From a virus, in IMG/VR virus record IMGVR_UViG_3300042561_001378, positions 14,144-78,143 of that record: a DNA stretch of 64,000 nt; one strand, given 5' to 3'. Under the pieces are notes generated by a model, which saw only the letters and a list, made by a program, of their open reading frames with translations, was not told the origin of the DNA and ran no database searches. The stretch's first letter is position 1, and every line of letters begins with the position of its first letter. The translations under genes and the position numbers were made by a program. This document shows positions 5,391-59,424 of the stretch, piece after piece.

Positions 5391-5689
5391 CCCCTATCTG
5401 GCGAGTTCGGCAAATGGTATCGACGCTGATTGAGCAAGACGAACTCAAGGCCAGGGCTAGCAGCTATGCGATCGCCCGCTTTGCCCTGACTCAAATCAGC
5501 CGCAAGGGCACCAAAATATCCATCGAAGACTTCATGCCCTACGCCGATCCCAACGCCGCGCAGAAGCAGGGTGAGGGTATCCCGGCCAAGACCGTGGCGA
5601 TCATGCGGCAATTGGTCAAGGGGCGAGCGTTACCAGCTCGGGTGGAGGCAGCAGCAATACGGGCATTAGGGGGAATGGGCGATGGCTGA
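5249..5689 (+). CDS. -1 frameshift extension of tail assembly chaperone (gpGT-like)
   Basis: The -1 frame is open from the slippery site (PFSRAQRILSECRTAFEREREFWDKCYFRIQ...) into ORF 5414..5689, which overlaps the tape measure start. Confidence 0.7.
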   Translation, partial: PFSRAQRILSECRTAFEREREFWDKCYFRIQSAGVQDPCYHWQEIGLTPIWRVRQMVSTLIEQDELKARASSYAIARFALTQISRKGTKISIEDFMPYADPNAAQKQGEGIPAKTVAIMRQLVKGRALPARVEAAAIRALGGMGDG

Positions 5690-8600
5690 TTTAGGTGAAC
5701 TCGTACTCAGGCTTAGGGTTGACAGTAGTCAGTACACCCGCGACCTACTCAGGGCCAGGGCCCAGGCTGCTGCGCTCAAAGATATCCGGGTTGGCCTCCG
5801 GCTTGACAATAGCCAGTACACCCGTGACTTACTCAAAGCCAGGACACAGGCTCAGTCGCTGAAAGATATCCGGGTTGGTCTACAGCTTGACAGTAGCCAA
5901 TACACCCGCGACCTACTCAGTGCCAGAGCCCAGGCTGAAGCGCTCAAAGATATCCGGGTTAATCTCCGGGCTGAGGGCCTCGGGGGCGTTGATGCTGGCC
6001 TACAGAGAGTCGGAGCCGGTACCCGTGATGTGAGAACATCGTTTTCTGTCTTGCAGGGGGCCATCCAGGGCGCAGCCCAGGCCATCACCCAAAGCCTGAT
6101 TCAGATCGGCGGGTCATTGCTAAAGCTCCCTCTCAATATTGTGGGTGGGTCGCTTAATAGCTTTGCGGGATTAGAGACAGAGCTAGTAAAATTAGGCGCA
6201 TTGTCCACCCTGGGCCGAGAGGGCATACAACCCATAGCCGATGAAATCCAGAGGCTTGGCCAAGTTTCTACGAAAACGCAGGTAGAAGTCGCCCAGGCCG
6301 CAAATACTTTGTCTACGCTAGGCGTATCGCCTGATGAGATTCAAAAACGATTGCCTGGTATAGTTGCGCTCTCAGAAGCAACTGGAGCCGGTTTAGTTGA
6401 AGCGGCTAAGCTTAGTACATCCGCAGCTACCATTTTTGGGTTTTCATCTGATGAAATCGCAGATCGATTAGCATCTTTAGCGATTGACAGCGCTGCGGAT
6501 GTTGGAGACGTTCAACAGCTTTTACAACAAACTAGCGGTATCTTTAATCAGTTAGGAGATTCAGCAGATCCGGACGAACTATTAGCTTTTTTTGCTACAC
6601 TCCGCGATGCAGACATAAGCGCAGACGTGGGGGCTACAGGTTTAGCGTCAGTAATTGAAACATTAGTAGACCCCAAAAAAGCTGACGAATTAAAAGAGCT
6701 AGGAGTTAGCGCATTCGACGCAGAAGGCAATTTCCTGGGGTTTGAAACTGTACTCAGGCAATTGGCAGCAACGCAAAAAACCTTGAACCCTAAAGATTTC
6801 ACAGGTAAACTTATTGGTACTTTTGGGGCTGGAGGTATTGAAGCAATTGCAGGAGGACTAGGCGGTTTAGATACAAGCTTTAATAAAGTATTTAATGGAC
6901 TAAAAAATTCTGCTGGCAAAACTGATGTAATTACAGAAGAGCTACAAAAAGGACTTCCAGCCGCTATAGAACAATTTGGCGGATCCCTAGATACGCTTGA
7001 TGTTGCATTTGGTGCATCTATTGCATCTATTCAAGAAGGGTTATTACGACTAGGGACAACGTTGCTTAATACCTTAAGCGAGTCCGACATTTTTGAACAG
7101 CTTACTACCGCGTCCAATGGTTTCTTTGAGGCACTATCAAGCAACGAAGGGTTTGTTGCAGAGCTAGGCAAAACCCTCGTTGCCACATTGGGATCAGTCC
7201 TTAACGCCATTGCATCCGTCGTCACTCGAATCACAAACGAATTTGTAGCTAACCCTGAAGAGATCCTGGCCCGTGTTCAAGGTTTTGTGACTCAAGCTGG
7301 AGTCGTGATCACTAACGCCATTCTCGGGGCCGGTGCTGCCTTTCAGTTTATCGTCCAAAACTTTGACGCCATCGTCGCCGGGGTGCAGGCCCTGGGGGTT
7401 GTCATTGCCGCCGCGATCGCAGGCAATGTCATTGCCGGGGTAGTCTCGTTTGGGACGACCCTAGTCACCATCGCTACCACCATCATCCCCCTAGTTTCAG
7501 GGGCATTTACCGCGCTATCAGGCATCGTCTCCGGGCTATTGCTGGCATTCAAAGCGGGGGGCATTGCCGGGGTAGTGTCTAGCCTTGGCGCTACCTTCTC
7601 CCTGTTCGCGGCATCGTTGGCCCCTCTACTGCCCATCATTGCCGCCGTGGCTGGGGCGATCGCATTAATCGTCGTCGCGTTCAAGGCATTGCGGTCGGAG
7701 CGGGGCCAGGAAATTCTAGGTGCGATCGGGGCCAAGGCCACAGAATTGTTTGACTCATTCCGCAACAGCGAACCCGTAAAGGCGTTCTTAAATCTGCTGG
7801 ATTCAATCAGGGATCTAGGAGTCGCGCTCATCCCAGTTATCAAAAATGTAGCCGGAGAAATAATTCGACTTACTGGGGTTGGGATTGAAAATATAAAGTC
7901 AGCTTTTGCCTCAACGGGGATCAGCGTCAATGATATTTACAAAACATTGTTACTCATAAATCCTATTGCTGCCGGTACAATTGCTCTTGCCAAAACATTG
8001 CTTTCAATCGTTACCGACATTCTAAATAAGACCGCCACTGTCATTGACAACCTCACCGCTGCTATCAGTGGGCCGAAGAAATTTGAAGTATCAGGAGCTG
8101 ATGAACGGGCAGATACGATAAGGGAACAGGGCGTCAATCAGTTGACAGTAGCAGAGAAAACCGCTGCTGCTGCTAAACCCGATGCCGATAAACCCGATGC
8201 CGATAAAGCTGCTGCCGATAAAGCTGCTGCCGATAAAGCTGCCGCCGATAAAGCTGCCGCCGATAAAGCCGCTGCCGATAAAGCTGCTGCCAATAAAGCT
8301 GCTGCCAATAAAGCCGCCGCCGATGCCCTCGCCGCTGCTGAGAAAAAGGCTGAGGACGACAAGAACGCCCGCCAGACCGCCTTTGACAATGCCCGCATTG
8401 CCCGTGACATTGCCGCCGAAGATGCCAAACTAGCCCGTCAACGCGCGTTTGACGATACCAAACGCGCCAATGCGATTGCCCTAGAAGTCGAGATTGAGCG
8501 GCGCAAGATAGCGACTGAGCAGGCGATCGAGGACATCAAGGAAGAAGGGCGTATTCGGGAAGAGGCATTCAACAAAAAGCAAAATGAAGACAAACTAGCC

Positions 8601-9431
8601 TTCGAGGATGACCTGGCTGCTCGTCGCACTGCCGCTGAACGCCAGTTTGCTCTAGACGAAGCTGGGTCACTAGACGAGCGGAACAAGCTAGTCGAGGGCT
8701 TTGCCGCCGAAGATCGCAAGGCTGCGGTACTGGCCCCCTTTGAGCAAGAACAGCGCGACTTTGAGGCACAGCAACTAGAAGAACGCCGCATCTTTGAAGA
8801 ACAGCAACGCGCCCTTGATGCCGAAGCTGAAGAACTTAAGCGCCAGTCTGAGCTAGAAATCAACGCCCTCAACCTTGATGCCAAAAATCAAGAGATTGCC
8901 CTAGAGCGTGACTTCCAAAACAATGAACGCACCCTTGAGCGCCAAGCCAAAGAACAGGAGCGGGCTAGGGAGGCATCTTTTAACGCCACCGAGCGCAGGC
9001 TAGATGAAGAATCTGCCCGCAGGATTGAGGCACTCAAGTCCGGCAACGACGCCGCCGCCGTCACTGCCTTCCGTCGGGGTGGCACCTTCGCCGCTGGCCA
9101 AAACATTCTCGCGGGTGAGGCTGGCCCAGAGCTACTCAAGGTCGGCGGTAAGCAAGCCCTGGTCACCGAACCCAGCCTCATGCGCTTCGACTCCCCTGGC
9201 CGCGTCACCAGCGCACCCTCCACCCGGCGTAAACTATCCCAGGGGCAACTGAGTAGGGCCGGGGCTGGGGGTGAGCTCAAGGCCATGCGGAAGGCCCTGG
9301 AGCGATCGCTAGCTAGACCCCCCGCCGACATCAACACCACTGTGCAGGTGCAAGGGCTCAGTGCTGACCAGGTACGGCGGCAATTGGCCATGCACCAGTC
9401 AGACCTATACCGCAGCCTAGGGGGCCTCTGA
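5682..9431 (+). CDS. tail tape measure protein (TP901-like core)
   Basis: 1249 aa; MADLGELVLRLRVDSS N-terminus; TP901-type core; hydrophobic segments; coiled-coil C-terminus; AGEAGPEL motif. Confidence 0.9.
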   Translation: MADLGELVLRLRVDSSQYTRDLLRARAQAAALKDIRVGLRLDNSQYTRDLLKARTQAQSLKDIRVGLQLDSSQYTRDLLSARAQAEALKDIRVNLRAEGLGGVDAGLQRVGAGTRDVRTSFSVLQGAIQGAAQAITQSLIQIGGSLLKLPLNIVGGSLNSFAGLETELVKLGALSTLGREGIQPIADEIQRLGQVSTKTQVEVAQAANTLSTLGVSPDEIQKRLPGIVALSEATGAGLVEAAKLSTSAATIFGFSSDEIADRLASLAIDSAADVGDVQQLLQQTSGIFNQLGDSADPDELLAFFATLRDADISADVGATGLASVIETLVDPKKADELKELGVSAFDAEGNFLGFETVLRQLAATQKTLNPKDFTGKLIGTFGAGGIEAIAGGLGGLDTSFNKVFNGLKNSAGKTDVITEELQKGLPAAIEQFGGSLDTLDVAFGASIASIQEGLLRLGTTLLNTLSESDIFEQLTTASNGFFEALSSNEGFVAELGKTLVATLGSVLNAIASVVTRITNEFVANPEEILARVQGFVTQAGVVITNAILGAGAAFQFIVQNFDAIVAGVQALGVVIAAAIAGNVIAGVVSFGTTLVTIATTIIPLVSGAFTALSGIVSGLLLAFKAGGIAGVVSSLGATFSLFAASLAPLLPIIAAVAGAIALIVVAFKALRSERGQEILGAIGAKATELFDSFRNSEPVKAFLNLLDSIRDLGVALIPVIKNVAGEIIRLTGVGIENIKSAFASTGISVNDIYKTLLLINPIAAGTIALAKTLLSIVTDILNKTATVIDNLTAAISGPKKFEVSGADERADTIREQGVNQLTVAEKTAAAAKPDADKPDADKAAADKAAADKAAADKAAADKAAADKAAANKAAANKAAADALAAAEKKAEDDKNARQTAFDNARIARDIAAEDAKLARQRAFDDTKRANAIALEVEIERRKIATEQAIEDIKEEGRIREEAFNKKQNEDKLAFEDDLAARRTAAERQFALDEAGSLDERNKLVEGFAAEDRKAAVLAPFEQEQRDFEAQQLEERRIFEEQQRALDAEAEELKRQSELEINALNLDAKNQEIALERDFQNNERTLERQAKEQERAREASFNATERRLDEESARRIEALKSGNDAAAVTAFRRGGTFAAGQNILAGEAGPELLKVGGKQALVTEPSLMRFDSPGRVTSAPSTRRKLSQGQLSRAGAGGELKAMRKALERSLARPPADINTTVQVQGLSADQVRRQLAMHQSDLYRSLGGL
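5721..5960 (+). repeat. about 3 x 84-bp tandem repeat (DSSQYTRDLLxARxQAxxLKDIRVGLxL) in the tape measure N-terminus
   Basis: gacagtagtcagtacacccg-like units start at 5721, 5805 and 5889. Confidence 0.9.
8164..8325 (+). repeat. 15-bp coding VNTR (gctgctgccgataaa; KAAAD) in the tape measure
   Basis: About 10 tandem KPDAD/KAAAD/KAAAN units. Confidence 0.9.
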
Positions 9432-9907
9432 TGTCCAACAAATTCACGCTGATTCTTGCAGGGCAGACGAGCATTGTCCTTACCCATTCCGCCGGTCAAC
9501 TGTTTGCCCCCGCGCAGCTAGGGTTCACCAGCGTGGGCGACACCAATCTTCGAGGCATCTCACTGGTCGGCGCTACCCCGGTTCAACCCCTCGACCTGGT
9601 TTTCGACGCGGCCTTGACCAATGCGCAATTCTGCACCTTCCAGCAGTTTGCGTACCAGCAGGAGGTGGGGGGCCAGAAGGGGGATATCGTGCTTAGGAAT
9701 GAATGGTATCGAATCAACGCCAACTGGGCTGCTGTCAATAACCGATCGACCGTGGGCAGCGCTGTCACCACCGCTGGCATATCTCAGAGTTACGTCCAGT
9801 ATCCTGTGCTTCTGCTATTGCCAGAGGATTGGTTTGAGCCCCTGGGCCAGAACAGCGGGGGGCAGTGGTGGTCGGTGAAGTTTACGGCGAAGGAGCTGAC
9901 GGCTTAG
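9431..9907 (+). CDS. putative distal tail protein
   Basis: Immediately follows the tape measure (TGATG overlap); C-terminal WSVKFTAKE. Confidence 0.5.
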   Translation: MSNKFTLILAGQTSIVLTHSAGQLFAPAQLGFTSVGDTNLRGISLVGATPVQPLDLVFDAALTNAQFCTFQQFAYQQEVGGQKGDIVLRNEWYRINANWAAVNNRSTVGSAVTTAGISQSYVQYPVLLLLPEDWFEPLGQNSGGQWWSVKFTAKELTA

Positions 9908-10108
9908 CTTCCCATTCATCGGGCATGGGGTGAGGGGCTATGGGAGAGGCGGCAACAATCGCGGTAGTACCACGGTTGAAAAATGCTGTAAAGTAGGGGT
10001 GGATTCCGTTGCAAGATTCCCCCCTACTTATGGTGCCTGTGCACATCTCTACTTTAAGGGATGTGCTTGGTAGCTAGGAAGGGATTGTCCTCTTACCACA
10101 GCAAAACC

Positions 10109-10723
10109 ATGAAAACTGCCCAAGTTAAAATCACAGGCCAAGCACCCTACACTCAGTCTCGGTTCCACGGTGAAGCCAAGCTACCCCGTGAAGGTAGCGA
10201 AGATTACGAAAACCGGACATGGCCAGGGAAGGCCCACCTGAATGAGGCTGAACAGGTCACGATACCTGCGCTGGCTTTCAAAAAGTGCCTTGCAGAAGCT
10301 GCAAAGTATCTATCTGAACAGATCCCAGGCAAGGGCAAGGCCACCTATACCAAGCACTTCCAGAGCGGGGTGATCGTGCTGACTGATAGCGTTGTCTCTT
10401 ACAAGGGCCAGCCGGTCACCAAAGCCTTGCTTGACGTTCCCAAAAGCGGATATTACGGAAACAGAATGTTTGTCCCCTCTGACGGGGTGGCAGGTTCTGG
10501 TAAACGGGTGTTTCGCACATTCCCGACCGTTGCTGACGGCTGGGAATGTGTTGTTGAATTCTTGATTATGGATGACATCATTACCCAGCCTGTCTTCCAG
10601 AAACACCTAACAATGGCTGGGATGTTGATTGGAGTCGGTGCCTTCCGGGTTCGTAATGGCGGGGTGATGGGCCGGTTTAAGTCTGAAATTCTGAGTTGGA
10701 CAGAAGACAAAGAGGTAGCATGA
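10109..10723 (+). CDS. solo RAMP/Cas7-like RNA-binding protein (Vipr-like candidate)
   Basis: 204 aa. N-terminal strand KITGQAPYTQSR, IPALAFKKCL (RAMP IPxxxxKxxL helix), RTFP...WECVVEF, and C-terminal Gly-rich loop AGMLIGVGAFRVRNGGVMGRF. Confidence 0.7.
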   Translation: MKTAQVKITGQAPYTQSRFHGEAKLPREGSEDYENRTWPGKAHLNEAEQVTIPALAFKKCLAEAAKYLSEQIPGKGKATYTKHFQSGVIVLTDSVVSYKGQPVTKALLDVPKSGYYGNRMFVPSDGVAGSGKRVFRTFPTVADGWECVVEFLIMDDIITQPVFQKHLTMAGMLIGVGAFRVRNGGVMGRFKSEILSWTEDKEVA

Positions 10724-11244
10724 TGGACGTTTTGACAGACAGCACCCCCGCCTTTGTGGGGAAACGCTCAATCTACACCCAGCTATTGATCCAGGCCATG
10801 CGGGATGTACCAGACGGGGAAACCTTCACCTACACCCAAGCCATGACCATCACTGGACTGAGTGCAACCAAGACAAAAACCTATCTCCTTTCAGCGATCC
10901 AGTCGCTGTTGAGAGATTACGGCATTGTCTATAACTGTTGCCGAAACGTGGGATATACCCGCTTAACGCCTGAAGAAGTGCCCACTGTAGCGAACACCAA
11001 AAACCTCACCAAGATGAGGGGAACCACTGGACGTTACAGGGATACCCTTGAAGCTGTAGACCCTGGCACCCTATCCCAAGAGGCCCAGACTAAGCACACC
11101 CTGGGAATGCTCAATGTCCACCTTATGGAGGGCGTCATTAGCCGCAAATCCCAGCGGGCGATTGGGAAACAGGTAGTGCAGTCAAAACCTGAACTGCCAG
11201 ACAGAGACAGGATGATCGCCCTGTATAAAGGGCTGTTCTCCTAG
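10720..11244 (+). CDS. accessory protein of the RAMP-array locus (possible winged-HTH)
   Basis: ATGA overlap with the RAMP gene and GAGG RBS; the array starts right after its stop codon. Confidence 0.6.
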   Translation: MMDVLTDSTPAFVGKRSIYTQLLIQAMRDVPDGETFTYTQAMTITGLSATKTKTYLLSAIQSLLRDYGIVYNCCRNVGYTRLTPEEVPTVANTKNLTKMRGTTGRYRDTLEAVDPGTLSQEAQTKHTLGMLNVHLMEGVISRKSQRAIGKQVVQSKPELPDRDRMIALYKGLFS

Positions 11245-11353
11245 GGGCAGATCAACTCAACTCATCTCGCATCTTCTCGTCTCCCCTCGACTCCTCTCAT
11301 CTCTTCTCTCCTCTCCTCTGCTCGACTCTACTCCACTCTTCTCGACTCAACCG

Positions 11354-12760
11354 AACCCCGTCAGCGATGGCGGGGTTTCTCATGGGCGGGGGTGGGGGTA
11401 TAATGAGGGGCAGATCAACTCGCATCGACTCTGCTCCCCTCATCTCAACTCGCCTCGCCTCGTCTCATCTCATCTCGACTCTTCTCGTCTCGCCTCAGCT
11501 CAGCACAAGGCAACTCAACCGAACCCCGTCAGCGATGGCGGGGTTTCTCATTGCGGGGGTATGGCATAATGGGGGGACAGCTCATCTCCACTCAACTCAC
11601 CTCCTCTTAACTCGGCTCTTCTCGTCTCCGCTCTCCTCGTCTCCTCTCGACTCTTCTCGTCTCGCCTCAGCTCAGCACAAGGCGGCTCAACCAAACCCCG
11701 CCAGCGATGGCGGGGTTTCTCATTGCGGGGGTATGGCATAATGGGGGGACAACTCAACTCTCCTCTCCTCCACTCGGCTCTGCTCCCCTCGCCTCTTCTC
11801 GACTCGACTCAACCGAACCCCGTCAGCGATGGCGGGGTTTCTCATGGCGGGGGGTGTGGCATAATGAGGGGACAACTCGTCTCAACTCCTCTCACCTCGG
11901 CTCGCATCTGCTCGTCTCTACTCATCTCTTCTCCCCTCATCTCGGCTCATCTCGACTCGACTCAACTCAGCTCATCTCTTCTCGTCTCGCCTCAGCTCAG
12001 CACAAGGCAGCTCAACCAAACCCCGTCAGCGATGGCGGGGTTTCTCATTACAGGGGTATGGCATAATGGGGGGACATCTCAGCTCCGCTCATCTCCCCTC
12101 GACTCATCTCGTCTCGACTCGTTTCCTCTCCCCTCGACTCGACTCGACCAAACCCCGTCATTGCTGGCGGGGTTTCTCATTGCGGGGGTATGGCATAATG
12201 GGGGGACAACTCGCCTCGGATCGCCTCACCTCGGCTCAACTCGGCTCGTCTCAACTCCCCTCGACTCGACTCAACCGAACCCCGTCAGCGATGGCGGGGT
12301 TTCTCATGGCAGGGGTGTGGCATAATGGGGGGACAGCTCAGCTCATCTCAACTCCCCTCGCCTCTACTCACCTCGACTCACATCTGCTCGGCTCATCTCG
12401 TCTCGCCTCAGCTCAGCACAAGGCAGCTCAACCAAACCCCGTCAGCGATGGCGGGGTTTCTCATGGGCAGGGTATGGCATAATGAGGGGACATCTCAGCT
12501 CCGCTCGGCTCTGCTCTGCTCGGCTCGCCTCGGCTCATCTCGCCTCACCTCGCCTCTGCTCATCTCGACTCAACCGAACCCCGTCAGCAATGGCGGGGTT
12601 TCTCGTGGGCGGGGTATGGCATAATGGGGGGACAGCTCATCTCGACTCGTCTCGGCTCAGCTCGTCTCCACTCGACTCCGCTCGCCTCCTCTCGACTCAT
12701 CTCGACTCCTCTCCGCTCTTCTCGACTCAACCAAACCCCGTCAGTGATGGCGGGGTTTCT
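11354..12760 (+). terminator. ten repeated intrinsic terminator-like hairpins
   Basis: ccccg(t/c)ca-loop-tggcgggg followed by tttct; loops are GCGA, GCAA or GTGA (GNRA), with TTGC once. Confidence 0.7.
11399..12625 (+). promoter_or_regulatory. nine repeated -10 promoter elements, one before each of units 2-10
   Basis: TATAAT at 11399; TGgCATAAT (extended -10) with CATAAT at 11565, 11737, 11860, 12062, 12194, 12321, 12478 and 12620. Confidence 0.65.
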
Positions 12761-12988
12761 CATTGCGCCACTGCCACACCACCCCAGGCCGTCGCGGGCT
12801 TTCCCCTGTCCCCAGATCCAGCACCTCGACCTCGACCCCGCCCGACCTCAGCACTACAGCATCGACACACCACCGCCCCACCAGCAGGCTCATCCCCGGT
12901 GGGTACAGATAAACCCAGGGGCACCATACCGCCAGCCCCCAGCGATCGCACCGCAGTCCCCATCGTTCGGCCTGGCCCTTTTCCATAC

Positions 12989-13210
12989 TCATCCCTCGTC
13001 CATCCACAGCACCCCCACCCACGGGGTATTAATCTCAGCCTCGCGCCGTACCCAGTCCAGCGCCACACAGGGCCGCGCATCCTCGCCCCACCACTGACAC
13101 ACCGGGCGAAACGTGATCGACACATCGCCAAACTGCCAGCAGTCCGCCACCTTTACCCCGCAAGTGTAGTAGCGGAGCCAGGGGTAAAAAGTTCGCAGTA
13201 GGGGTGACAT
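12989..13210 (-). CDS. hypothetical protein
   Basis: 73-aa Trp-rich ORF converging on the array. Confidence 0.3.
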   Translation of the reverse strand: MSPLLRTFYPWLRYYTCGVKVADCWQFGDVSITFRPVCQWWGEDARPCVALDWVRREAEINTPWVGVLWMDEG

Positions 13211-13263
13211 GGCGTGGGGCTTGTAGGGCTACCGTGATTCTACCGCAGGCCACCCGGTCGCAA

Positions 13264-13397
13264 CCCTGTACAGGGTGTGCAGGCCATGCAGGCCTCCGTT
13301 GAAATTATTTTGCTGTGTGTGCGGCGGAATTTTTTCGGAAACACACAGCACTTTCACGCTAGAAACCGGGGGTGTTTGCCCTACACGGCCTGCACAG
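13264..13397 (-). repeat. about 130-bp element, inverted copy (other copies at 43834-43964 and 47428-47561)
   Basis: Reverse complement matches tgtgcagg...ttctagcg...aaaaaattccgccgcacacac...aaataatttcaacggaggcctgcatggcctgcacacc. Confidence 0.85.
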
Positions 13398-13704
13398 CCC
13401 TAGTGCGATCGCCCTAAAACCCCTGTTCTCTCGTTGCGGCCCATCATTCCCGGCGCATCAGTACAGGAGGTACAGGGCACTATTCCCCAACCTTTTCTTA
13501 TATACTTTTACTGTGCATAGACAGCACAAAACAGACCACGTTGCCGGGGTCTTTTTGAAATTGTAGCACCTTGCACGGCCCTGAACCATGACCCTAGACC
13601 CCGGCGATCGCTGTTACTACTGCACCGGCAAAACCCTGGACCCTGCCGTTGTGGTGGGGTGCCCCATGGACGTGCTGGTGTTGCGGGTAGATTGGGGCGA
13701 TCGC

Positions 13705-14275
13705 TGCACCGACATGGGCCTAGAGTGGGCACCGGGTAGCGAGGAGTGGGACAGGATTGCGCCGCCGTTCTGAGGCGGGGCAGAGTGTTAGGCCGCTAAT
13801 CCTGACCAGCCCGGTAAAATAAAAAAGCCGTTTGCTAGGTGGCATGATGCCTGAAAATAATTTGTTGGTAAAAACCGATGGCGGCTGGGTGTGGGCCGAC
13901 AACCCTTTAGCGACTCAGGCCAGGAAAGAATTTGAGACTTCCGTGTTTGCTCTAGATAACGAGAACACGTCTAAGGTACTCGCGGAGATGCTGGTTGCGG
14001 CGATCGGGGCTGGTGCCGTGGGGGAAGATTTTCAGGATCTGATAATAAAAGTGGTCACCGGGGCCATTACCAAGATCCAAGAAGATGCCCGGAGTGCCTG
14101 GGCATTTGTTCACGAGAATACTGGCCTTGATTCTCTTGACGAGACGGATCTTACATACAACTGGCCAAAGGGCGAGTTTTCCCTAGCTGAGCCTGTGACT
14201 GAAAATGCACCGACCTGGGCCTAGAGTGGGCACCGGGTAGCGAGGAGTGGGACAGGATTGTACCGCCGTTCTGAG
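13705..14275 (+). repeat. 70-bp direct repeat pair (13705-13774 and 14206-14275) flanking one gene
   Basis: tgcaccgac.tgggcctagagtgggcaccgggtagcgaggagtgggacaggattg..ccgccgttctgag, 3 mismatches. Confidence 0.9.
13844..14224 (+). CDS. hypothetical protein between direct repeats
   Basis: Acidic ORF of about 126 aa. Confidence 0.5.
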   Translation: MMPENNLLVKTDGGWVWADNPLATQARKEFETSVFALDNENTSKVLAEMLVAAIGAGAVGEDFQDLIIKVVTGAITKIQEDARSAWAFVHENTGLDSLDETDLTYNWPKGEFSLAEPVTENAPTWA

Positions 14276-55319: not shown

Positions 55320-55598
55320 ATGCCTACCCCACCCCGTAACGTGCTCAGCCTATCGCTGAGCGCAGAAGATCAAGCCCTGCTGGCTGATGTCCTGGCCGAG
55401 GCTGGGTTCAGCAAGCCTACCCAGTTCCTGCGGAGTGTCGCCCGTCGCCAGACTGCGATCGGCCCTCCCACTAACGCGGGATTGCAACGGCAGATCAGCG
55501 CCTTGGCTGAGCAGCTAGAGCTCCAGGCCAATGCCATCGAGGAGCTACGCTGCCACGCCGCAGGGCTACCCCCGCGATCGCTCACGGAGCTACCATGA
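55320..55598 (+). CDS. ribbon-helix-helix-like regulator at the head of the type IV-B operon
   Basis: VLSLSLSAEDQALL...PTQFLRSV; ATGA overlap with csf1. Confidence 0.45.
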   Translation: MPTPPRNVLSLSLSAEDQALLADVLAEAGFSKPTQFLRSVARRQTAIGPPTNAGLQRQISALAEQLELQANAIEELRCHAAGLPPRSLTELP

Positions 55599-56260
55599 AC
55601 ACATCCCAACTGCTATATCCAACGCCGCCCACGGAGGGCGCTACGGAGGATCATTGCTCAGTCTGTGGATGGTATGGGCCGACCTATGCCAAGACTGAGG
55701 TTTTCAGCAAAAGCACCGGGGCCGTGTCGGTGCTAGCAACGGTGCCAACCGATCGCATCTGCGTCTATTGCGCTGCCCTTTGGGGAGAACCCAAAGTTTT
55801 TGCCCGTGCAGTGCTAGCCACACCAGAAGCAGTACAGTTTCCTACGATCGCGCCAGACCCAGCAGGGCAACGGCCCACATGGGGGCAAGCGCTAGCCGCC
55901 CTAGACCCAACACGGCCTCGCGTGTGCATCCTCACCACAGACCCCAAAAAACGAGTCTGGCCCTTTGCCCAGGTGAGCCAGGGCGATCGACTGAGTATGT
56001 ACGTACACGACCCCAGCCGGGGCATCTCAGGCAATCGTGTAGTGAGCCTGTCGCTACTTCTAAGGACAATCGCTGATATTGAAGCCATCTACAATCTAGG
56101 TTTTAGCAAAACCGCCATTGAGCGCGGATTGCTGGATGACCTAAAGCGCTCCAAAGCACTAGGTATCCCCGCCACCGTTGCCCACGAAAGACACTTACAA
56201 AGTGTCCGTACACTTCCCGAGTTTTTGCCTGCATTAATCATTGCTCAAAAGGAGCCCTAG
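55595..56260 (+). CDS. csf1: type IV CRISPR-associated Csf1 (Cas8-like)
   Basis: CSVCG...ICVYCA zinc motifs; KKRVWP; GFSKTAIERG; first gene of the operon. Confidence 0.7.
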   Translation: MNTSQLLYPTPPTEGATEDHCSVCGWYGPTYAKTEVFSKSTGAVSVLATVPTDRICVYCAALWGEPKVFARAVLATPEAVQFPTIAPDPAGQRPTWGQALAALDPTRPRVCILTTDPKKRVWPFAQVSQGDRLSMYVHDPSRGISGNRVVSLSLLLRTIADIEAIYNLGFSKTAIERGLLDDLKRSKALGIPATVAHERHLQSVRTLPEFLPALIIAQKEP

Positions 56261-56262
56261 CC

Positions 56263-57681
56263 ATGCCCGATCGCATTTTACTCAAGCTCACTGCCCTAAC
56301 CCCTGTAGCCCATGGCGAGGCCGGGGCCAATAGTACAGGGCCGAATAATACCACCCTGTTCAACCGGCAGTTGCAACGACTCACTAAAGAAACAGTGGGG
56401 GTGGATGTGATAGTTGCCAGAGACGCCATTGCAAACCTCCTGACGGCCATGCCTATTGGTGCCGATACCTTCCCCCTGCTGGAGTCGTTAAAAGGGGCTG
56501 AGTTAGTAGCAGCGCTATTTGTAGCTCAGGTGCCAATCATGTTCCCCGGAGACGGTGAGGGGCTATTCACTGGCATGGAGCGATACCGAATGCTAAGCAC
56601 CCGCTTAGCCGATGGGGCTAAGTGCTGCACTACGTTGCCAGAATTGTGGAGTTACCTTAGCCGAAAGCTTACGCTCCCCATGTTCCCTACCTATGGGTTT
56701 GAGGCAATGCGGGCGTTTTTTATTCTCCCTAAGGCCATCCAGGGGCAGGCCATCCAGGCCATTAGCAGGGCGCTAGAGCTTACGGTAATGGCCGCTCGGA
56801 TGCTGGCAGAAAGCATTAAGGTAGAGCGCAAAACCGCTAAAGACAACAACCTTAGTTTGTTCGCAGCAAAGGTGTACCAGGCCAGCCCTGAACAGTTAGC
56901 CGATCTCACCCGGCCCAAGGCGGAGGCAATCGTAATGCCCGTCCCCAGCATTAGCGGCAATGCCCTAAGACACTGCCTAATCCGTGAGCCCGGCGCAAAC
57001 CGGCTGATTCAATCTCTAGGCCTAGAACCCTACACCGATCGCGCTGGTGAGCACCTGGGCTTAGGCATTACTCGCTTTTTGTACGGCGGAGGGCAGCTTG
57101 CGGCTAAGGCCAAGGCACCCAGCGCTAGCGACATCTACGAAGCTCAGATCCGCAGCACTTACCCTATTGTGGATGCCGTGGGGGGCAGCACTGATTCCTG
57201 GCTGATGGCCGAAAGCGCCTGCAAGGTTGCAGGCTGGGTAGTCTGCGAAGAAAACAATGTTGCTACTCAGGCGATCGCCGGGGTTGAGTCGCAGGTGAGC
57301 ATTTTTGATTACCTCAGCGAAGAAACCAAAACCAGAACTGGCATCGGTGGCAAGGATAAAGAATCGGGGCAGATGATTTTTAGCTACGAAACCTTAGCCG
57401 CTGGCTTGCCCTTGATTGTAGAGATTCTGTTCAATCCATTCACCCAACCCCTGACCATTGGCGCGGTATGGCAAGCGGTGCATGATTGGGCAGATGAAGG
57501 CGGCATTGTGGGGGGCCGTAGCCAGATTGGCCATAGCCGCTTTGCCATGGAGGTATTGCAAGGCAGCTATGGGTTACAGGGCAAAGCATACCTGAACTAC
57601 CTAGAGGCAGAGCGCGATAGTCTACGGCCTGGATTGCTCGATGCCACAATGGGGACAGGGGCTGTGCTATGTGCGGCTTAA
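56263..57681 (+). CDS. csf2: type IV-B Csf2 (Cas7) with an inserted Cas11-like helical domain
   Basis: LTALTPVAHG..NTTLFNRQ; VPSISGNALRH; LYGGGQL; QMIFSYETLAAG; VGGRSQIGHSR. At 472 aa it is longer than usual. Confidence 0.85.
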   Translation: MPDRILLKLTALTPVAHGEAGANSTGPNNTTLFNRQLQRLTKETVGVDVIVARDAIANLLTAMPIGADTFPLLESLKGAELVAALFVAQVPIMFPGDGEGLFTGMERYRMLSTRLADGAKCCTTLPELWSYLSRKLTLPMFPTYGFEAMRAFFILPKAIQGQAIQAISRALELTVMAARMLAESIKVERKTAKDNNLSLFAAKVYQASPEQLADLTRPKAEAIVMPVPSISGNALRHCLIREPGANRLIQSLGLEPYTDRAGEHLGLGITRFLYGGGQLAAKAKAPSASDIYEAQIRSTYPIVDAVGGSTDSWLMAESACKVAGWVVCEENNVATQAIAGVESQVSIFDYLSEETKTRTGIGGKDKESGQMIFSYETLAAGLPLIVEILFNPFTQPLTIGAVWQAVHDWADEGGIVGGRSQIGHSRFAMEVLQGSYGLQGKAYLNYLEAERDSLRPGLLDATMGTGAVLCAA

Positions 57682-58370
57682 GCCCTTCCGAGCGGGGCGT
57701 TTTGACGGCATGGTCAAAACGCCCCAGCCATCAAGAAAAAGTTGATAAGGCTTTAGCCGATATCCAAAAAGCCTTATCAATTGACTCTGCCTATGTTGGT
57801 ATTTCCTGGGGTAAAGACTCTATCGTTTTGCTTCATCTAACCCAGCAAGTATGTCCTGGAATCCCTGCTATTTCCTTTACTCATCCAGAGCGAGAATTGA
57901 TCTCAAATTATGCCGAGGTAGAGAATGTCTACTGCGATCGATTTCAGCCAAACTTGATTGATTTAGCGATGGATGGAGACCACGTACCGCTAAAGGTAAA
58001 TGCTGCGAAGTTGTGGGAGCAATACCCCATGGCGTTGCTAGGCATCCGCAAAGAAGAGAGCCAAAAGCGCAGCATCACCATTGGGAAGTACGGGGTAATT
58101 CACCAGTATGAATCTGGCAATAAAAAAGGTAGTTGGCGATGCTTTCCCTTAGCCTACTGGACTTGGCGTGATGTTTGGGCCTATATCGCAGCCAACGATT
58201 TGCCATCACTTAATGCCTATGCTGACCAGCCAAAAGCAACGGGAAGGACTACAGACCACTTCTCAAAATCTGCTACCAAAACATGGACGCAGACTCGCTT
58301 TGAAAATCTAAAAAGGCTTAATCCTGATTATTACCGTTACCTGCAAACCCATTATCCGGAAATGGTATGA
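57669..58370 (+). CDS. cysH: CysH-like PAPS-reductase family protein of type IV-B
   Basis: ISWGKDSIVL, GIRKEESQKR, PLAYWTWRDVWAYI. Confidence 0.88.
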   Translation: MCGLSPSERGVLTAWSKRPSHQEKVDKALADIQKALSIDSAYVGISWGKDSIVLLHLTQQVCPGIPAISFTHPERELISNYAEVENVYCDRFQPNLIDLAMDGDHVPLKVNAAKLWEQYPMALLGIRKEESQKRSITIGKYGVIHQYESGNKKGSWRCFPLAYWTWRDVWAYIAANDLPSLNAYADQPKATGRTTDHFSKSATKTWTQTRFENLKRLNPDYYRYLQTHYPEMV

Positions 58371-58732
58371 GCAAACTCCAGATCAATAACTACCAATCGC
58401 CTCTTCATCAATGGTCGCCAATGGTGGGTAGCCAAGCTTTAGGGATTGGATTGGTAAAAGATAACAGATTTGCCGCTGATATGCTGAAATTTGAACCAGG
58501 GCAATGTACTAGCGTTCACACTCATCCTGGCGACCATATTCTTTTTGTCGTCAACGGCAATGGATTTTTGCTATACGACGGCGATCGCTACGATTTGATT
58601 GAGGGCGCTTGCTATTTTGTGCCAGGTGCAACACCTCATCAGGTGAGCGCAACATCAATAATGTTTTTGCTTTCTGTATCCAACGACCACCGCACCGTTG
58701 ATAGCGCTGAACGATTGAGAATTATCCAATGA
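58367..58732 (+). CDS. cupin domain protein
   Basis: HTHPGDHILFVVNGNG...GACYFVPGATPHQV. Confidence 0.85.
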   Translation: MSKLQINNYQSPLHQWSPMVGSQALGIGLVKDNRFAADMLKFEPGQCTSVHTHPGDHILFVVNGNGFLLYDGDRYDLIEGACYFVPGATPHQVSATSIMFLLSVSNDHRTVDSAERLRIIQ

Positions 58733-59424
58733 ACATAATCAACATCCCCGAACTAGACGCCATGGGCGATCGCTTTGCGGCCCTACCCATGGCCCCGTTC
58801 CGCCTTACACTGCAAACGATAAAACCTGTAGCAGGCAACGATGCACTGCACCTGGACGGGCTGCTAGCCAAAGCCGTGGTGATAGAGGCGATGCAGGGTA
58901 AACCCTTGCTACCTACCGAAGACGCCTACTACATGCCCTTGCCATTGGGCCTAGAGCGATTGCATCTGGGCTTACCCGTGTGGCAATGCAATGATTTTGC
59001 AGCCGTAGAATCAGCGGTAGGCCATACCCACTACCACCAGCGCAGCGACTCCAACCCCTACGACCCCGCCGCCACAATTGCTACCCTACCCCAGACCAAA
59101 CGCAGACGAATGCCGCCTACAACTGAGGGGCAGTATATGAGCTACCGAGTCCCCCTTCAGTACACTGAGGCCGATTGCTGGCACTGCGAAGCCGTGGGCA
59201 ATGCCGATGAGGTGCTGCGGCTATTGCGCGAATATATCCCCACCGTAGGCAAAAAAGGGGCGCAAGGCTATGGCCGCGCACTAAGTTGGGAGGCTACTCC
59301 GCTGGCCCGTTTTGAGCTACACCGCCCAGTCCCCATTGCTGATACCTCACAGCCCTTCAATGCTCAGATCATGGGGTGGACGCCGCCCTATTGGCATCGC
59401 AGTCTATGGCGACTTTGCGGCTAG
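58729..59424 (+). CDS. csf3: type IV Csf3 (Cas5-like)
   Basis: LHLDGLLA, PLPL, VGKKGAQGYG Gly-loop, RPVP, PPYWH. Confidence 0.85.
   Translation: MNIINIPELDAMGDRFAALPMAPFRLTLQTIKPVAGNDALHLDGLLAKAVVIEAMQGKPLLPTEDAYYMPLPLGLERLHLGLPVWQCNDFAAVESAVGHTHYHQRSDSNPYDPAATIATLPQTKRRRMPPTTEGQYMSYRVPLQYTEADCWHCEAVGNADEVLRLLREYIPTVGKKGAQGYGRALSWEATPLARFELHRPVPIADTSQPFNAQIMGWTPPYWHRSLWRLCG

Follow-up and report, generated by a model that had tools for sequence, protein, structure and literature searches.

A probable VIPR system with a CUC guide scaffold in a freshwater cyanophage

INTRODUCTION

VIPR (Viral Interference Programmable Repeat) systems, described in 2026, consist of a minimal RAMP protein, Vipr, an accessory gene, vap, and guide RNAs (vrRNAs) in which GGY/NN pentamers precede an invariant 3' tail (10.64898/2026.04.26.720920, 10.64898/2026.04.26.720927). 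Mostly phage-borne, they recognize double-stranded DNA (dsDNA) via pairing of the NN dinucleotides alone, with one target base skipped and a natural target counted as matched at 80% or more of the NN positions, and they silence rival phages and satellites, an absence of self-targeting being reported (10.64898/2026.04.26.720920, 10.64898/2026.04.26.720927). In the system of phage SUSP1, the vrRNAs co-purify with Vipr, pairing with RNA also occurs in vitro, and satellites hijack Vipr through solo vrRNAs of their own (10.64898/2026.04.26.720920, 10.64898/2026.04.26.720927). Here we examine a candidate member of this class in a stretch of 64,000 nucleotides from a virus (the window; positions 14,144 to 78,143 of IMG/VR record IMGVR_UViG_3300042561_001378), in which a two-gene operon is followed by ten runs of CTC-NN pentamers.

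The published consensuses related to GGY (YNNGG) are NNNGG, YNNNG, and NNNNG (10.64898/2026.04.26.720920, 10.64898/2026.04.26.720927); CTC fits neither GGY nor any of these and shares only the third, pyrimidine position. A preprint of October 2026 reports 21 clusters with other triplets beside Vipr-like folds, found by Evo-PIN entropy periodicity, and its text names GAC, CAC, WGT, and TGH (10.64898/2026.10.21.760802). Since that text accepts divergent triplets, GGY is, on its account, no longer strictly defining. Neither CTC nor CUC appears in the text of the same preprint, whose figure S10 and supplementary files lie outside that check, and priority for this triplet is uncertain.

We conclude, with a probability of about 0.88, that the locus is a VIPR system of a freshwater cyanophage, in which vipr is accompanied by a vap1-like winged-helix gene and by ten vrRNA genes, each transcribed separately. 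An earlier reading of the letters alone (the sequence-only reading) had put it forward as a new non-CRISPR RNA-guided system. That claim gives way, since the locus would be a member of the class published in the 2026 bioRxiv preprints, and other noncanonical triplets are reported in the text of the October 2026 preprint.

RESULTS

Operon proteins

The features of the locus, in window positions, are as follows.

10109..10723, plus strand: vipr, 204-aa Cas7-like RAMP, with a thumb hairpin at about residues 115-141 and the G-loop GVGAFRVRNGGVMG at residues 175-188
10720 or 10723..11244, plus strand: vap, 174 or 173 aa, with an N-terminal winged helix and a C-terminal helical part
11245..11381, plus strand: vrRNA gene 1, 19 pentamers (11256-11350), short tail, no CATAAT box of its own
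11382..11549, plus strand: vrRNA gene 2, TATAAT box, 20 pentamers (11419-11518), long tail class
11550..11721, plus strand: vrRNA gene 3, CATAAT box, 22 pentamers (11581-11690), long tail class, with C-G in the hairpin where the others have U.G
11722..11843, plus strand: vrRNA gene 4, 12 pentamers (11753-11812), short tail
11844..12046, plus strand: vrRNA gene 5, 28 pentamers (11876-12015)
12047..12178, plus strand: vrRNA gene 6, 14 pentamers (12078-12147), hairpin loop TTGC
12179..12305, plus strand: vrRNA gene 7, 13 pentamers (12210-12274)
12306..12462, plus strand: vrRNA gene 8, 19 pentamers (12337-12431), long tail class
12463..12604, plus strand: vrRNA gene 9, 16 pentamers (12494-12573), hairpin loop GCAA
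12605..12761, plus strand: vrRNA gene 10, 19 pentamers (12636-12730), hairpin loop GTGA

The product of the first gene is a RAMP of the Cas7 type and a homologue of the reference Vipr. Its AlphaFold2 model, built on an alignment of 53 sequences, reaches a pLDDT of 95.3; the best Foldseek matches in the PDB are type VII Cas7, Csm3 (type III), and Cmr4 (probability 1.0, TM 0.5 to 0.59), and the structure matches in BFVD are viral “RAMP superfamily” proteins. In hhalign, the profile of the window Vipr family aligns with SUSP1 Vipr (97.6%, E 4e-12) over 174 columns at about 25% identity, with the G-loops in register (G-D177-W178-R179 in SUSP1, G-A178-F179-R180 in the window). The RAMP/Cas7 fold proposed in the sequence-only reading is thus borne out, and the VIPR resemblance that it pointed out proves to be real homology, with a partner protein that resembles SUSP1 Vap1. 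Homologues of the protein number 461, are 185 to 220 aa long, and are mostly unnamed metagenomic or viral proteins. Neither operon protein has a match in Pfam or NCBIfam, where no Cas family is hit, and PHROGs returns only families of unknown function; a PDB sequence search finds no relative in a copy of the database without VIPR structures.

The second gene begins with an ATGATG that overlaps the TGA stop of vipr, which suggests that vap is translationally coupled to vipr. The AlphaFold2 model of Vap has a pLDDT of 91, and its N-terminal ~75 residues match winged-helix DNA-binding domains, including the AdeR DNA-binding domain, linker histone H1, ScpB, and MarR. Its profile also aligns with SUSP1 vap1 (82%, E 1e-5). 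An accessory vap gene, whose product binds DNA in VIPR types II, VI, and VII, therefore adjoins vipr.

Candidate guide genes

The region was read directly, and units and tails were then parsed by script. Ten units fill positions 11245 to 12761 on the plus strand after the coupled operon, each containing an in-phase run of 12 to 28 CTCNN pentamers, 182 in total, with exact CTC in 167 (92%). This is the array that the sequence-only reading had described, down to unit 10, which reads exactly as quoted there. The rare exceptions it had listed are present as well (five ATC, one CTT, one TTC), and units 2, 3, 5, and 8 moreover share a conserved pair, cacAA ggcNN, that it had left out. The NN positions use all 16 dinucleotides. 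Runs of at least four CTCNN occur nowhere else on either strand of the 78-kb genome and not at all in 20 shuffles, so the pattern is not a product of chance. The arrangement matches that of vrRNA genes, with at least four tandem units of three fixed and two variable bases lying beside vipr on the same strand.

The units are delimited by recurrent signals. A -10-like box, GGCATAAT (TATAAT in unit 2), lies about 10 to 14 nt 5' of the run and is absent in unit 1, which would therefore depend on read-through or on a TATAAA that lies within the end of vap. The unit tail reads AACC(G/A)AA-CCCCG(T/C)CA-loop-TGGCGGGG-TTTCTC, and a conserved 26-nt hairpin, CCCCG(T/C)CA-NNNN-TGGCGGGGTTTCTC, closes all ten units with an 11-bp stem on the plus strand. 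The invariant structured 3' tail of VIPR guides is thus represented here by a terminator-like hairpin, in which no pseudoknot was detected. Scanned for the tail pattern, contigs from viruses and metagenomes yielded generic terminators only, without CTC arrays, and no Rfam family matches within 9000 to 14000.

The tails fall into two classes. Units 2, 3, 5, and 8 carry a near-identical extra 3' block (11479-11556, 11651-11728, 11976-12053, and 12392-12469), which reads ctcGT ctcGC ctcAG ctcAG cacAA ggcNN ctcAA, breaks the CTC rule twice, and is predicted to form a small GCCU/AGGC hairpin without covariation to test. Unit 5 resembles a short-tail unit (ending GA GA AA) fused to a long-tail block, with no terminator or promoter between them, and this look hints that the array may evolve by unequal recombination between units.

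Comparison with described systems

Phage SUSP1 (KT454805) encodes proteins of 195 and 146 aa in genes flanked by GGTNN arrays on their own strand. Its type II VIPR and the window locus are both phage-borne, and in both a small DNA-binding vap comes after vipr, followed in turn by a set of separate guide genes of ~100 nt, whose 5-nt units of three fixed and two variable bases are capped by a conserved structured 3' tail. The aromatic residue and the arginine of the G-loop are also kept (F179/R180 in the window, W178/R179 in SUSP1). Going by the vap1-like partner and the downstream array of self-contained guide genes, the window system is type II-like. However, the two differ in several respects. 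The fixed triplet is CUC in the window and GGU or GGC in SUSP1; the window has ten guides of up to 28 units, compared with four guides of 9 to 16 units, and no guide upstream of vipr; its tail is a plain terminator hairpin, with an extra mini-hairpin in four units and no evident pseudoknot; the residues that contact G1 and G2 in SUSP1, D177 and R138, are A178 and F138 in the window; and the host is a cyanobacterium. The noncanonical arrays described in the text of the October 2026 preprint are closer in scaffold, with a non-GGY triplet, an adjoining Vipr-like fold, and a 5-nt period, but have about 10 repeats per array, compared with 12 to 28 in the window (10.64898/2026.10.21.760802).

The Cas7 backbone proteins of class 1 effectors (Csm3/Cmr4 and type VII Cas7) share with the window protein an RRM core, a G-loop, and a thumb. 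Cas7 polymerizes along its guide RNA with periodic base flipping, in a 6-nt period with one base flipped, and Vipr, judged by SUSP1, would polymerize along its guide with periodic flipping as well. In contrast, the VIPR period is 5 nt with three bases sequestered, and VIPR guides are genes with their own promoters, not pieces cut from repeat-spacer transcripts. The window locus also lacks the class 1 set of a repeat-spacer array, cas1 and cas2, and a multisubunit effector beside the Cas7 gene. No repeat-spacer structure occurs in 9900 to 13000, the operon has two genes only, with no large or small subunit, and no cas1, cas2, or cas6 adjoins vipr, although the window was not systematically searched for these three.

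Related loci

Mapping fixed triplets across the family, we scanned 111 loci for 5-nt periodicity, with vipr set to the plus strand (29 from genomes, 80 from IMG/VR, one from Pseudomonas phage LESphi2, and the window's own locus, L031). Arrays with a 5-nt period lie near vipr and on its strand in 94 of the 111, the own locus included, so the check that the sequence-only reading had proposed, whether homologues neighbor such tracts, came out in its favor. Read on the vipr strand, 40 loci have GGC as their fixed triplet, 17 have CGC, 11 have CTC (the window and L031, which are the same locus, being counted separately), 10 have GAC, 4 have GTC, and 3 have CAC, with a few others. Because GGC is the triplet in 40 loci, the family contains canonical GGY systems; these GGC-type members are 45 to 55% identical to the window protein. 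Nearly all classes have C as the third base. A vap homologue stands directly 3' of vipr in 28 loci, across all scaffold classes.

The CTC loci cluster together in a maximum-likelihood tree, in a group of 12 rows (SH-aLRT 92) that includes one CAC locus, and this CAC locus is, besides a Microcoleus metagenome-assembled genome (MAG), the nearest relative of the window. The octamer HIP1, GCGATCGC, occurs 11 to 14 times per 10 kb in all members of the CTC/CAC group, compared with fewer than 1 in other classes, and three members lie in cyanobacterial MAGs. The guide genes of the CTC clade follow a common plan of -10 box, run, and hairpin. The CUC scaffold is characteristic of a cyanobacterial clade and a variant within the published VIPR class, and the CTC motif does mark a distinct variant, as the sequence-only reading had suggested.

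Two further observations came from this survey. IMG/VR contigs L032 and L033 (~3570-4500 of L032) carry CAC-NN in four guide genes, with a Vipr 52% and a vap 39% identical to those of the window, and belong among its closest relatives in the tree; here the middle scaffold base has switched recently, inside the cyanobacterial clade. In Pseudomonas phage vB_Pae_LESphi2 (OQ594955), a distant homologue of 25% identity (2081-2395 of the locus, L030) sits in the immunity region, with cI and a gene for a sigma factor upstream of it. Just 5' of the homologue, on the vipr strand, are three GGC-NN arrays, and the three genes following the arrays are all annotated “hypothetical protein.” The LESphi2 locus resembles a VIPR locus that has escaped annotation, in a well-known phage of clinical-strain P. 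aeruginosa.

Scaffold contacts

The alignment columns most associated with triplet class are 118, 120, and 122 in the strand before the thumb, 135 to 140 in the thumb, and 178 in the G-loop. A178 of the window aligns with SUSP1 D177, which contacts G1, and this column is arginine in all GGC-type relatives; R178 is found in 45 of the 47 loci with G as the second triplet base, but in only 1 of 10 with A. F138 of the window aligns with SUSP1 R138, which holds G2. This association between residue and triplet is suggestive only. R180 is invariant and aligns with SUSP1 R179, the arginine of the pyrimidine (Y3) pocket, which fits the near-constant C at the third base.

Target searches

Within its own 78-kb genome, with skips of 0 to 3 bases, the guides have chance-level matches only, in agreement with the reported lack of self-targeting in VIPRs. 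Six exact windows of nine NN (both halves of guide 10, and guides 4, 7, 2, and 3) gave 0 or 1 independent match each in IMG/VR, where about 1 per pattern is expected, and none of these matches extends past chance or sits in a plausible genome. The guide 7 match falls on a conserved AGATGKGVK motif in tail-fibre genes; we judge it a chance hit, the phages concerned not looking cyanobacterial by sequence and about one match being expected. Guide 9 is absent from 401 cyanobacterial genomes at up to three mismatches, all guides lack a target in the loci of 110 relatives, and three guides of the Microcoleus relative lack one in the three host genomes G001 to G003. The NN composition favors sense-strand codon positions 1 and 2 over other registers (log2 likelihood ratio +9.1 against background), giving weak backing to the idea that targets may lie in genes and be read with the wobble base skipped.

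Phage, host, and genomic setting

The record, a virus genome of 78,143 bp, has direct terminal repeats, so the locus is encoded by a virus, as VIPR systems are by viruses or proviruses. The phage has a GC content of 55% and carries 50 copies of HIP1 in its 78143 bp, compared with ~1 to 2 expected, an abundance that by this signature marks its host as a cyanobacterium. It recurs nearly unchanged in lake and freshwater metagenomes of at least six studies. Over the parts of the array that they cover, Logan DNA contigs from four lake studies match the window exactly; they break inside the array and are hence uninformative on NN variability.

Upstream of vipr lies a tape-measure gene (5682-9431, 1249 aa) that holds a run of PDADK/AAADK/AAANK pentapeptide repeats, and the VIPR locus directly follows the tail-length module and one 158-aa gene. 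On the same phage, 44 kb from the VIPR locus, a five-gene operon (55595-59424, plus strand) resembles an array-less type IV-B CRISPR-Cas module. Its first two genes (221 and 472 aa) have no NCBIfam match, the next is PAPS-reductase/CysH-like (57669-58370), the fourth is cupin-like (58367-58732), and the last (58729-59424) matches Csf3/Cas5 of type IV (TIGR03116, E 1.7e-9, under the curated cut-off). Two RAMP-based systems on one phage are worth a look.

DISCUSSION

If the window locus is a VIPR system, its working can be drafted by analogy with SUSP1. For each unit, transcription would run from the unit's own -10 box as far as the terminator hairpin. Vipr would bind at one protomer per pentamer, with neighboring protomers sequestering the fixed C-U-C, and the exposed NN pairs would base-pair with dsDNA reading NNxNNx, one base being skipped. 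The resulting filament would then block transcription of a competing phage, satellite, or prophage, with the winged-helix Vap assisting. The binding of one CUC per subunit, with the NN presented as a gapped guide, had also been proposed in the sequence-only reading, and we infer it by carrying over the SUSP1 structures.

Several results weigh against this interpretation. No natural target was found, in searches that are insensitive and that all stayed at chance level. The SUSP1 residues that read syn guanine are not conserved (R138 is replaced by F138 and D177 by A178), so scaffold recognition must differ in detail from that of SUSP1 and could change the geometry. A phylogeny-controlled independent-pairs test of residue against triplet had one to three usable pairs and no power. 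A strict sigma-70 consensus scan recognized the promoter of unit 2 only and none of the tails, so that promoter function is one we infer, and no RNA sequencing run was found to contain the locus.

Part of this evidence would suit a VIPR relative with a different read-out, which skips another number of bases or, in place of dsDNA silencing by a triplex with a 1-nt skip, binds to RNA or single-stranded DNA. No target obeying the 1-nt skip rule turned up, the residues that hold G1 and G2 in SUSP1 are replaced, and the SUSP1 system itself pairs with RNA in vitro. However, the window protein retains its identity to SUSP1 Vipr over the 174 aligned columns and is closer still to GGC-type members of its own family, and the vap1-like DNA-binding partner is kept. 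Moreover, the NN composition best fits codon positions 1 and 2, as a 1-nt skip gives, and skips of 0, 2, and 3 are likewise without matches. We regard a different read-out as unlikely.

Much less probable is transcription of the arrays from the minus strand, which would give NN-GAG guides. A hairpin and a weak T-rich stretch can be drawn on that strand too, but the details of the tail favor the plus strand. The U.G pair found in nine of the ten hairpins is C-G in unit 3, a one-sided change that keeps the pairing, and on the minus strand the same position would carry an A.C mismatch. On the plus strand, GCGA, GCAA, and GUGA, three of the four loop variants, belong to the GNRA type, and the minus-strand loops do not. 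The -10 boxes precede the runs on the plus strand only, and in SUSP1, LESphi2, and the canonical relatives it is the vipr strand that reads GGY-NN in the arrays. We find it equally hard to credit that the pentamer tracts act as DNA (winged-helix binding sites or a structural or packaging repeat) or as translated low-complexity open reading frames (ORFs): although mechanical ORFs of 99 to 239 aa cross the array and binding of the winged-helix partner to repeated DNA is conceivable in principle, a period of 5 nt is incompatible with a constant reading frame, we reject these ORFs as repeat artefacts, every unit has a terminator hairpin and, save unit 1, its own promoter-like box, the homologous SUSP1 locus makes vrRNAs that co-purify with Vipr, and variable NN beside a fixed triplet is a guide signature across 94 loci.

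Returning to the VIPR interpretation, the variety of triplets raises a tentative idea, which we consider possible and would not rate higher. The fixed triplet may be an evolvable “address,” switched repeatedly among Vipr lineages through a few pocket residues (118, 122, 135 to 140, and 178), with CUC orthogonal to GGY. The tree requires at least 27 triplet changes among 80 labeled tips (GGC, CGC, GAC, GTC, CAC, and CUC). Such switching could be driven by escape from rivals that hijack Vipr with solo vrRNAs, as the SUSP1 satellites do. If the address idea is true, the CUC cyanophage clade offers a second programmable scaffold without cross talk, together with a readable code of protein-RNA recognition.

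The VIPR class is months old, and all its biochemistry rests on GGY scaffolds from phages of enterobacteria and Pseudomonas. A well-preserved locus of ten guides on an all-pyrimidine CUC scaffold indicates that the protein-RNA handle is not fixed, and the natural series GGC, CGC, GAC, GTC, CAC, and CUC in one protein family provides a means to work out how Vipr reads its scaffold. It also points to orthogonal scaffolds that could be used in multiplex. The general understanding of VIPR function is unchanged by this locus, which would extend inter-phage RNA-guided conflict to the cyanophages of freshwater blooms.

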